Origin: a virus
Reading direction: 5' to 3' (one strand)
IMG/VR virus record: IMGVR_UViG_3300011271_000002
Coordinates: 1 to 64,000 of that record
Length of the DNA stretch: 64,000 nucleotides
Shown: piece by piece, positions 24,013 to 27,730 of the stretch
Layout: each line of letters opens with the position of its first letter
Numbering within the stretch: position 1 is the stretch's first letter
Position numbers and translations under genes: made by a program
Notes under the pieces: generated by a model
Told to the model about the DNA's origin: nothing
What the model saw: only the letters and a program-made list of their open reading frames with translations
Database searches by the model: none

Positions 24013-24483
24013 TTAGAGCTTCTCCGCGATGTAATCCTTTTCGGTCAGCGTCGCTATCAGCCGAAGTTGTTTCTCGAACCATTGCTGATGATCGCGATGC
24101 CATTTGATGAGATGCTCCCACAAATTACGAGATAGATCGTCCTTGGCGGCGCTGGCGGTGACTACGTTAGTTTCGTAGAGATCGCAGATCTGAACCACCA
24201 TGGCTAGCGAATCGGTGATGATCGCGGTCACTGAGCCCGGTTGGCCTACGGGAGCCGGCTGGTAGGGCGAGCCGGTTCCGTCGCCGCTCAAAAATAAGAG
24301 TTGATTGGTGACGGCCTTCAGCCACGAGTGTGCATCGTCGGCGAAACCCGTGAATTTGTTGCCCAGTTTTTTGAGTCCGTCAAAACGCAATAGCCTGGCG
24401 TTCATTCGGTATTGCAAATTCAAATGCGCTTCGAGCGGCAGCGCGTCCTGGAAATTCTTGATAACGGTTGGATTACCCCTCAT
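24013..24483 (-). CDS. bacterioferritin/ferritin-like four-helix-bundle protein
   Basis: MRGNPTVI..LE...QY..AR...GLKKL...H....LLFL and D.LSR.L.E...H..W.E.QL.LI match the Bfr pattern. Confidence 0.75.
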   Translation of the reverse strand: MRGNPTVIKNFQDALPLEAHLNLQYRMNARLLRFDGLKKLGNKFTGFADDAHSWLKAVTNQLLFLSGDGTGSPYQPAPVGQPGSVTAIITDSLAMVVQICDLYETNVVTASAAKDDLSRNLWEHLIKWHRDHQQWFEKQLRLIATLTEKDYIAEKL

Positions 24484-26552
24484 CGGTTGCTCCTTCAATC
24501 ATCTCATCGAACATCTTAGCCTTGTGCGTTGCCGCCTCGCGGAACACGGCAATCCGGATTGCCTGAATTGCCCGGCCCAATTCCCGATCCACGATTTCGT
24601 CTAACTCACTAGCATCCCACTTTCCGGAGCGCTTTGTCATGCCGCCGATGTATTCGCCGATGAAGCGGTCGACAACGGCGCCGTAATCGCCCGTCACGTC
24701 AAATTCCCGAATAGCCTGCATATCGGCGACGCTACGGATCGCTTCCAGAATAGGCCCTAAACATCGTGTCAATGCGCCGGCATCTTTGCGCCTGCTCGCT
24801 AGAAAGCGCTGGCAACCGTCGCGAAATAGACCGGAATAGAGAGTTTTGATGGCATCCGGCGCCGGGGTTGTTTTCTTCTTGGATCCGCCAGCGCCACCCT
24901 CCGGAACGGTCCCGTGCCCGGCGCCGTCCTGGAACGTAGGATCGATCGGTGTCGACGTGAGCGTCATGTTTACCGGCATCCAATATTCTTCTGCGGTTGG
25001 ATCGTCGATCGGATTCAATTTCTCCATGCCGTGAATGTCGTTCGAATTCAAATAGCCCCATTGCTTGCCGCTGGCATACAGCTTCTCCCGCGAGGCCGCG
25101 TCAGGCCGCAACATTTCGGAAAGGTCGAAGTCAAGATAGAAGGGACTCCGCGGCGTCCGGCCGAGCCCGCGGTGAGGGAAAAGTTTCCGTTTGGCTTCGT
25201 TGACGATAGCGGAAAGCCACGGCCCGAAACAGAATTCCTTCAACTCCTGGGCGAGCTGCTCGGTCATCGCGCGACCTTTGTCAGTTTCCCCGACCATGTG
25301 CGGCGGCACATGGAAGAGTGCGCAGATTTCATTGCGACTGAACTTGCGGGTCTCGATGGTCTGCGCCTCCTGTGGGTTGTTTGACATCGGCGTGAATTTG
25401 AACCCCGGTGGCATCACCGCGACTCGATGAGCGTTTTCGCCGCCTTGCGCTTCCATCCAGGATCGCTTCGATTGTTCCTTGTCGGCGGCCAACATGTTCA
25501 TGGGCATTTCGAGGATGCCGCCCGGCTTGGCAAAGTTGGCGAAATACTTGGCGCCGAATTTTTCAGTCGCCAGCGCCAGCCCGATTGTTTGCCGCGCCAG
25601 CCAAACCACGCTCTGCCCGATGCGGCCATCAAAACTGAGGCCAGGCACGTGCAGCATGTCCTCCATGGCAATGAATCTGACTGAATGGGATTTCGCATCC
25701 AGTTCCGATTGGTCCATGTTGTCGATGCCATCGGTGGTCTGATAAACCATCGTGCCCGCCGGCAGGTTCAGTGGGAACGGGCGCCATGGTACCGCCTCGA
25801 GCCTCACTGCGGTCGTTAGCCGTCTCGGTCGGGTCTTGCCGGGATTGCGCGGCCACAACGCCACGATGCCGTTGCCCTCGTCCCGCTGCAGCTCGATGTA
25901 GCCATTGCTCCATGCGAGACAATGACACATGAACGCCTTCCACATCGTGTTGCCCGACATCTCATCGTTTGGCTCGAGCGCCACCAGGTCATAGTAGTCA
26001 TGCTCGTAAGCGATTCGATGCCGCTCGCGGCCGGCGTCGGATTGTGAACGCTCGAACACGTGGCGCGGCAGCGAGGAGATCTTGCCGGCGATGATGTCCA
26101 CACAGGCGAGGAAGGTCGTGGTTTGAAACGCAACGAGTTCGGATACACGCGTCCCGCTATCTGTGCGTCCACCCTGAAAGCAAATTGTTGCGCGCCGCCC
26201 GCATCCGGCGACGCTCTGCATATTCCTATGCAGATCAGACTATATCTTCAATCTTTCGATTGCCGCGCGCTTCGGGGCCGCTGGCCCCTACTCCCTTTCG
26301 GGATAGTCGTTACACCTTCCTCATCACTGAGGCTCGGCTCGGGATTGTCCGTTCTGGAGTTTCCCCGAGTTCACGCGGTTACGACACATTCAAAGTTTAT
26401 GTCGAGTAGCCACTCAGCCGGAATATGAAGTATCGAGTGGCCGCTGCTGTCCCTTCCGGCCTTCAGGACAGGGGCGTCTGTGGATTTTCCAAACTGCTTC
26501 GATCTTCTCTAATCGGAGCAGTCCAGTCGCGCCCAATTACTGCTAGGCTCAT
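24473..26552 (-). CDS. HK97-family portal protein, three exons: 26552-26465, 26423-26399, 26180-24473 (606 aa if spliced)
   Basis: GGGAGG RBS and ATG at 26552; joined sequence RSSLENPQTPLSFPAEWLLDIFQGGRTDSGTRVSE; body has ACVDIIA..ISSLP, PND.MS, GNGY-like, MLHV.GL.FDG..G.S, FAN.AKPGGIL, EICALFHVPP. Confidence 0.9.
26181..26398 (-). ncRNA. ORF-less group I self-splicing intron (IA2-like), 218 nt
   Basis: P1 CGACAU/GUGUCG with U-G at the splice site; P3 CCGCGU/GCGCGG; P4 CUCGGG/CCCGAG; P7 GACUAU/AUAGUC with S element AAGAUAUAGUC; P7.1, P7.2, P8 and P9 hairpins; terminal omega-G; removal restores the frame. Confidence 0.93.
26424..26464 (-). other. 41-nt coreless insert (putative satellite mini-intron) in portal gene
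   Basis: creates in-frame TGA and a frameshift; contains GCCGGAAGGGACAG, complementary to the ligated junction CUGUCCU|UUCCGGC. Confidence 0.8.
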
Positions 26553-27730
26553 CACGTCCTCCCTTCTGCCGCTTCGTTAACGACATCTTGCCGAGTAGCG
26601 GATTTGCCCGGATCGACTACCGGTAATTTACCGCGCTTTGCCTGCGCATAATGTTTGCCACAAACACCCTTGGCTATCGCCGGCGATTCGCACATCGAAC
26701 AATTCTGACGAGTGACGATCTGCGCAAAATTTGGATCGCCGTATTTTTCCCAGCGCTGATAATGTTTATCGCAGAATCCCCGCGCTTTGTGCCTGGCTCC
26801 GCAAATTGTGCAGAAGTTTTTGGGCTTGGAGTTGGCCGCGCGCCGAGCCAATTCACTACGTCCTTCCGGACCGAGAGCTTCCAATCTACGGCGAGCGCCT
26901 TCGATCATTTTCTGTTTTTGTACTTCGCCCAATGGCTTGCCGAAATGGGGATTGTTAGCGCCTGACATTGCAGCACGGACAGCGGCGCGTTTTAATTCCG
27001 CATCGGGCCCACCCCAACGCGCGCGACTGGCGGCCGCGTGTATAGCCATAAGTTGTTCGCGAGGAGCCGACTCGCGCCATTCTCGCGAGGCCTTTTGCAG
27101 TTTATCCTGATGTCCGACTGGCATCGGCACTCCGTACATGTGATTACCAGTTCCAGACATGCGTGCACTTTGATTTGACCGTTCTTCCGGCGTACGTTTC
27201 CGAATTTTAGCGGATGCACTCATCTTCTGTTTTGTGGGCTCAGAGAACACGCGCCCGCGCAGCGTGTCACCTTTCTTGCGTCGCGCCTCCGGACTGTTCA
27301 AATGGGCCGTGCCTATACGTTTACGAGCCTCGCTTAGCTTTCTGCGATGTTCGATGGTTTTGGGACGACACAATTTCTCGTATGCCTCGCCGACCATCGT
27401 GCCGCCCGTGCCGCCAGTTGTGAGATTATAGCCGATGCCTGAAACGTTGGAACGATAATCAAGTATCCATTGTTTCTCAAGGCTAGACAGTTCTTCCTTG
27501 CTAAAGGCTTGACACAATTCTTGAACTTCGAACGATGCTGCTCCATACTTTCTAAATGCTCGATAGAGTAATGGTTTTTTGTTCGAGCCAGTCGCGGCCG
27601 TTAGCAGATTGGTTTTTATGTATTGGGGCAATGGCTTGACGGTCTGGCCGACATATATCTTCCCGTTCACGACGTTGCGAATCAGATACACGACGCCATA
27701 GGGCGCTTTGCTACTCTGTTGTTCAGCCAT
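26552..27730 (-). CDS. free-standing GIY-YIG homing endonuclease with NUMOD3 repeats and C-terminal zinc fingers
   Basis: GVVYLIRN.VNGKIYVGQT, LYRAFRKYG...F, LEKQWI, GYNLT.GG; EHRRKLSEA and NPHFGK repeats; C..C......G.C.KHY twice. Confidence 0.9.
   Translation of the reverse strand: MAEQQSSKAPYGVVYLIRNVVNGKIYVGQTVKPLPQYIKTNLLTAATGSNKKPLLYRAFRKYGAASFEVQELCQAFSKEELSSLEKQWILDYRSNVSGIGYNLTTGGTGGTMVGEAYEKLCRPKTIEHRRKLSEARKRIGTAHLNSPEARRKKGDTLRGRVFSEPTKQKMSASAKIRKRTPEERSNQSARMSGTGNHMYGVPMPVGHQDKLQKASREWRESAPREQLMAIHAAASRARWGGPDAELKRAAVRAAMSGANNPHFGKPLGEVQKQKMIEGARRRLEALGPEGRSELARRAANSKPKNFCTICGARHKARGFCDKHYQRWEKYGDPNFAQIVTRQNCSMCESPAIAKGVCGKHYAQAKRGKLPVVDPGKSATRQDVVNEAAEGRT

Follow-up and report, generated by a model that had tools for sequence, protein, structure and literature searches.

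The portal gene of a soil phage is interrupted by a 41-nt insert and, shortly downstream, by a complete group I intron. The insert is probably, at odds only slightly better than even (about 0.55), a degenerate group I intron without a catalytic core, which would be excised by the core of the neighbouring intron while a second helix (helix 2), formed between the tail of the insert and the exon that separates the two elements, would position it. Comparable elements, termed mini-inserts here, were identified in 13 further cases, with lengths of 34-69 nt; they occupy eight additional positions, in portal genes and a second phage gene. Whether phage structural genes carry non-autonomous group I introns more generally, with the next downstream core splicing both elements and helix 2 serving as an adaptor that stacks on the P1 of the neighbour, is judged from these sequences to be evenly balanced.

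The interrupted portal gene

The window (the whole 64,000-nt stretch of DNA analysed) is taken from a complete soil phage record of 104,422 bp with terminal repeats. The interrupted gene encodes an HK97-type portal protein (PF04860, 258 bits in a Pfam search), for which 611 homologues were found, and a search of the genome returned a single copy. Identical portal sequence was present in soil metagenome contigs from four runs in 3 studies, at 14-26x depth. The gene and its upstream neighbour are arranged as follows.

26552..27730, minus strand: free-standing GIY-YIG/NUMOD3 nuclease gene; its stop codon and the start codon of the portal gene overlap
26465..26552, minus strand: portal exon 1, with ATG at 26552-26550; its translated sequence agrees with homologue N-termini as far as ...ENPQTPLS
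26424..26464, minus strand: 41-nt core-less mini-insert with terminal base A, deletion of which restores ...PLS-F-PAEWLLD
26399..26423, minus strand: 25-nt micro-exon coding for F-P-A-E-W-L-L-D-I
26181..26398, minus strand: complete group I intron of 218 nt (Rfam RF00028, 63.8 bits), guide at 26387-26382
24473..26180, minus strand: portal exon 3 (Pfam PF04860)

The reading frame of exon 1 runs to ...ENPQTPLS and then meets UGA. In homologues, PLS is followed by one residue (F, Y or M) and then by PAEWLLDIF.GGRTDSG, and in the window PAEWLLD is encoded at 26421-26401, in a frame other than that of exon 1. No deletion other than that of 26464-26424 restores the family consensus with a U on the 5' side, and a unique second deletion, 26398-26181 (218 nt), restores D-I-F-Q-G-G; in the uninterrupted allele L002, the DNA reads straight across both insertion sites. 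Other 3' splice sites ending in G were considered for the insert and were found either to break the frame or to add 6 residues without a matching P10.

Only one group I intron was detected in the genome by Rfam search, namely the 218-nt intron that begins 25 nt past the mini-insert. The Rfam match (26417-26216) stops short of its 3' end, which was set at G26181 by coding continuity, and the 35 nt beyond the match (26181-26216, minus strand) hold an 8-bp hairpin of the P9-type extension kind. The GIY-YIG and NUMOD3 gene lies within 155 nt of both interruptions, a layout typical of nuclease-assisted intron homing.

Pairings across the micro-exon

The segments of exon 1 and of the insert that take part in pairing are listed below.

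26471-26465, minus strand: 5' strand of the insert P1, the last 7 nt of exon 1, with U as the final base
26454..26460, minus strand: P10-type guide of the insert (helix 1), pairing with the first 7 nt of the micro-exon
26447..26453, minus strand: P1 guide of the insert, directly 3' of the P10 guide, pairing with the end of exon 1
26434..26445, minus strand: insert strand of helix 2 (PM/P2-like), starting 1 nt past the P1 guide

The P1 of the insert comprises 7 bp and places U26465.G26453 at the junction, so that the U.G pair of a group I splice site is present, and the P10 guide of 7-8 bp sits directly 5' of the P1 guide, as in group I introns. An initial annotation of this DNA had described the micro-exon as tiled end to end by three abutting helices, and all three were recovered at the positions it gave. 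Helix 1 joins 26423-26417 to 26460-26454 by seven Watson-Crick pairs, an eighth pair (G.U) being possible. Helix 2 joins 26416-26405 to 26445-26434 over 12 positions with one A x C mismatch and two G.U pairs, the same counts as had been proposed, and the P1 of the intron joins 26404-26399 to 26387-26382 by five Watson-Crick pairs together with the anticipated wobble, a U.G pair at the splice site. Together these pairings cover 25 of the 25 bases of the micro-exon, with neither overlap nor gap. Compared with shuffled versions of the insert tail, helix 2 in the window scored p = 0.036 when duplex energy was used and p = 0.0045 when pairs were counted.

Unconstrained folding with RNAfold gave a minimum-energy structure of three tandem hairpins, consisting of the insert P1, helix 2 (9-bp core) and the intron P1 (z = -1.85), and in 5 of 6 portal precursors a three-hairpin fold was the one of lowest energy. 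Helices 1 and 2 cross, and helix 1 is predicted to be a loop-loop (P10-type) contact between two adjacent hairpins that lies outside any continuous stack. Because the linker between the P1 guide and helix 2 is only 1 nt, P1, P10 and helix 2 cannot all stack in line, and the geometry of the three has to be bent.

Guide and tail account for 27 of the 41 nt of the insert. The catalytic core of a group I intron (P3-P9 with the guanosine site) is absent from it, no second Rfam match being returned even at E values up to 10, and no P7 with a bulged base next to a G-C pair was found in the 10 unpaired nt after helix 2, where the fold contains no hairpin. Helix 2 does correspond to a PM-type pairing, which runs from the middle of an intron to its 3' exon. 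In place of the terminal guanosine (omega-G) the window insert has A, and its tail is without the A-rich end seen in other mini-inserts. The terminal A is atypical, and the window copy may be inefficient or dead.

It was also considered whether the 41 nt stay in the RNA, being passed by a -1 frameshift or a bypass of the gene 60 type, or else marking a broken portal gene. The 50-nt gap that is bypassed in T4 gene 60 opens with a hairpin and with a stop codon that immediately follows the last codon, and matching take-off and landing codons are needed. The portal gene is similar in that a short non-coding gap with a stop and a hairpin at its start lies in an essential phage gene: UGA comes right after the last codon of exon 1, inside a hairpin, and the frame of exon 2 in the window is open back through the insert. 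By inspection, however, the window has neither a slippery heptamer nor a pair of take-off and landing codons that match in the frame required, the only downstream UCC leading into a frame with an immediate UGA. Read-through by a single frameshift is stopped by stop codons in 7 of 13 examples and would insert about 14 residues into an invariant motif, and neither frameshifting nor bypass has a use for guides to both exons (P1 and P10) or for U...G boundaries. A broken gene is at odds with this being the sole portal gene of a complete genome and with its recurrence in several soil runs. Retention of the 41 nt is accordingly regarded as very unlikely, and excision as a core-less intron is the reading pursued below.

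Mini-inserts in related phages

Portal relatives were collected by searches based on a portal alignment, on intron-core motifs and on a portal pattern that is independent of the introns. Among the portal alleles, 47 are uninterrupted, 2 have a 1-nt shift, 2-3 contain the intron only and 8 types contain both a mini-insert and an intron (the window, L056, L076, the L058 group, L188, L046, L191 and L064). The portal mini-inserts are 37-69 nt long and occupy five positions, with micro-exons of 23-34 nt, and the introns beside them belong to two unrelated types found at four positions. The second gene encodes a phage protein of 424 aa with no match in Pfam or PHROGs and contains six mini-inserts, 34-46 nt in length and distributed over three sites (L121, L128, L126, L105, L153 and the L141 group), all with U...G boundaries; second-gene alleles that are uninterrupted in that N-terminal region lack the mini-insert. 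This brings the total to 14 mini-inserts at nine insertion positions in two genes, although the examples are partly related by descent and represent about 5 independent events, not 14.

The portal mini-insert pattern gave only chance matches in bacterial genomes and 25 matches in metagenomes, about 16 of them likewise due to chance. A second pattern, designed for the site between ENP and QTP, gave no match; its gap range did not reach the 69-nt insert of L064. When P1/P10 pairing was sought generically upstream of 76 intron copies, the result did not exceed the controls, with 28 hits against 24 on the reverse complement, and it served only as a lead to the second gene.

All 14 mini-inserts are preceded by U, and 13 end in G, the window being the exception. 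In each of the 14 the P10 and P1 guides adjoin and match their own flanking exons. The P10 pairings comprise 5-8 bp against 9 different exon sequences, and P1 pairing is likewise present throughout, though it is reduced to 4 bp in L064 and contains a single mismatch in L058, L188, L128 and L126. A complete intron was found 18-83 nt downstream of every mini-insert, and no mini-insert without a full intron was seen among the portal allele types or second-gene alleles examined. In L153, the first ~22 nt of the 34-nt mini-insert (minus strand, from 225) resemble the start of the full intron found at the same site in L141 and L146, with the guide in common, which suggests that mini-inserts arose by loss of the core.

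A helix between the tail and the downstream exon is present in 14 of 14 mini-inserts. For the 13 that were tested by energy, the dG of the tail-exon duplex ranges from -8 to -25 kcal/mol, and shuffling gave p = 0.001-0.058 in 12 of them and p = 0.14 in L126; L141, which was assessed by pair count only, has 4 bp (p = 0.15). Several of the pair-count shuffles were not significant, with weak results for L191, L064, L126 and L105. In five portal types helix 2 falls on the Trp-Leu-Leu codons, and the Leu wobble column reads A x C, C-G, U-A, U-A and A-U. In L046, L191 and L064 the P1 of the neighbour occupies this usual segment and helix 2 is shifted to the Pro-Ala codons, where the Ala wobble column reads G-C, G-C and C-G. 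The covariation analysis across homologs that the initial annotation had called for thus yielded compensatory pairs, and these lie at the only codon positions that are free to vary; the pairs were tabulated by register, as a MAFFT alignment of the precursors displaced the helix 2 columns.

Helix 2 ends 0-1 nt before the P1 of the neighbour in most cases, and it likewise abuts that P1 in the minimum-energy folds of the portal precursors. By unconstrained duplex prediction the same spacing of 0-1 nt was obtained in L121 and L128, whose exons measure 68 nt each, and in L153, with an exon of 38 nt; its chance probability is about 1 in 46 for L121, 1 in 46 for L128 and 1 in 17 for L153. In L126 and L105, by contrast, the strongest tail helix adjoins the P10 target and lies far from the P1 of the neighbour. 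A helix that stops at the P1 boundary, as the initial annotation had noted for the portal gene, is seen in most mini-inserts, including three whose exons of 38-68 nt do not impose it, but not in these two.

Exact end-to-end partition of the exon did not hold up as a conserved design. In portal genes 0-7 nt separate P10 from helix 2, and in the second gene the distance reaches 45 nt; gap-free tiling is confined to the window and to the L141 group (L141:1195-1500; also L138, L147, L154, L165 and L167), in which an 18-nt micro-exon separates a 41-nt mini-insert from the full intron downstream. There, 18 of 18 bases are covered, 7 by P10, 4 by helix 2 and 7 by P1 (6 + 6 + 6-7 when assigned by hand). 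The rule appears from these comparisons to be a conserved helix that usually abuts the P1 of the neighbour, with gap-free tiling as a special case.

Helix 2 might nonetheless be functionless, either a leftover of a former full intron or a product of repair after nuclease cutting, with the tiling as a by-product of a very short exon. Near-complete coverage is indeed almost forced in exons of 23-27 nt, the pair-count results in the four inserts named above are weak, and the likeness between L153 and L141 is what an origin from full introns would leave. We nevertheless consider this explanation unlikely, given that compensatory changes maintain the pairing, that helix 2 has been relocated to another exon segment in L046, L191 and L064, and that it abuts P1 in exons of 38-68 nt. 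The order of the antisense segments is also wrong for a simple inverted duplication, which, together with the occurrence of the helix in all 14 mini-inserts, its relocation and its compensatory pairs, supports helix 2 as a selected feature and upholds the initial view that it is more than a random duplication of that kind.

Proposed excision, known systems and neighbouring interruptions

We infer splicing by the neighbour's core, docking through helix 2 and any order of events, and a possible course is as follows. The insert would have retained three parts, of which the P1 guide addresses the end of exon 1, the P10 guide the start of the micro-exon and the tail its middle. In the precursor, three hairpins (the insert P1, helix 2 and the intron P1) would stand in a row, 0-4 nt apart, followed by the intron core. 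Helix 2 would act like P2 or the fungal "PM" helix, its loop presenting the 3' splice site of the insert and the P10 target and its base set against the P1 of the neighbour, and the substrate helix of the insert would thereby come within reach of the only ribozyme core available. The composite would resemble a single group I intron in which, after P1, helix 2 takes the place of P2 and the neighbour's P1 that of P2.1, with coding sequence inside both P2 and P2.1. The core of the neighbour would dock the insert P1 and cleave after U26465, the P10 contact in the helix 2 loop would allow exon 1 to be joined to the micro-exon, and the intron would then excise itself via its own P1, both events following normal group I chemistry. 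Several points count against this scheme. The window insert ends in A, whereas the second step of group I splicing normally needs G, and its tail has no A-rich end; the geometry of the three helices has to be bent; the strongest tail helix lies far from the P1 of the neighbour in L126 and L105; adjacency is nearly forced in short exons; and the examples are partly related by descent, with several pair-count results that are not significant.

Small degenerate group I introns are known from fungal nuclear SSU rDNA, in Phialophora (PaSSU, 63-75 nt), Arthonia and Porpidia (Harris and Rogers 2011, PMC3160393). Introns of the PaSSU type end in U and contain P1, P7 and P10, along with a PM helix formed with the 3' exon (PMC3160393). 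They share with the phage mini-inserts their tiny size, the U.G pair of P1 at the splice site and a P10 guide inside the P1 loop, and neither they nor the window insert end in G. Their activity requires flanking RNA, which is counted here as a further likeness.

Mini-inserts could by analogy be removed independently, each as a minimal group I ribozyme aided by flanking RNA or protein in the manner reported for the 67-nt fungal PaSSU, helix 2 being the insert's own PM and its adjacency to the intron P1 incidental. In favour of this, PaSSU-type introns (56-81 nt) with P1, P10, PM and a last base other than G are reported to splice in vitro with long flanks, and the window insert likewise has a last base other than G. 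The fungal introns, however, retain P7 with its guanosine site and are described as ribozymes themselves, whereas the phage inserts (34-69 nt) are without P7, and those of 34-46 nt are too small for P7 or a guanosine-binding site. The fungal introns also reside in eukaryotic rRNA genes with no adjoining intron, whereas the mini-inserts lie in protein-coding genes, just upstream of a complete intron whose P1 helix 2 usually abuts. Across the 47 uninterrupted and 8 doubly interrupted portal allele types and the second gene, a mini-insert never occurs without that intron, and helix 2 tracks the P1 boundary even in long exons. Independent removal is for these reasons thought improbable, and excision by the core of the neighbour is preferred.

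Tandem arrangements of Tetrahymena introns have been engineered (Ueda et al. 2023, PMC10136302). In the tandem introns described, each has its own P3-P9 core, whereas the 41-nt insert has none. With phage group I introns (RF00028) the mini-inserts have in common the rules for P1, P10, U.G and terminal G, as well as conserved coding sites, a nearby gene for a homing-type nuclease and short exons between introns. Among other classes, the group III and mini group II introns of Euglena plastids are degenerate: splice-site elements have been kept, most of the catalytic domains are gone, and other introns or factors are presumably required; they differ from the mini-inserts in class and chemistry, act in trans and have no exon-tethering helix of this kind. 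No publication describing core-less mini-introns that adjoin full introns in phages was found in a literature search.

If the proposal is correct, group I introns have non-autonomous derivatives, as transposons do, and there is a route by which an intron can decay without killing an essential gene. It would likewise supply a natural case of a group I core acting on a foreign substrate helix, and it would explain "frameshifting" insertions of 34-69 nt that are called as broken portal or other phage genes. Helix 2 makes the idea of a shared core testable.

The two intron types are widespread in viral contigs from soil and peat (L075-L167), their exact core motifs occurring in 13 and 83, and in some contigs (L113, L126 and L162) intron copies lie only 220-320 nt apart. 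Further interruptions were also observed. In L191 (2447-2950), the mini-insert and a 202-nt intron are followed ~23 nt on by a second full intron of the other type, giving three interruptions in ~60 coding nt. A third interruption is likewise present in the L058 group (L058:2146-2193; also L060, L061, L063, L069 and L172), where it consists of 20 extra nt after ...UGGCU with U...G boundaries; helix 2 of the upstream mini-insert pairs across this junction with a U.G exactly there, and thus forms a P1-like helix provided by the neighbouring insert. Finally, two distinct uninterrupted portal alleles (L032:2560-2640 and L054:2520-2600) contain an extra T after the W-L-L codons, within the intron hot spot. 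The extra T creates CUU-UGA-C, the heptamer of the RF2 (prfB) +1 frameshift site, which could be either a programmed +1 frameshift or a scar.
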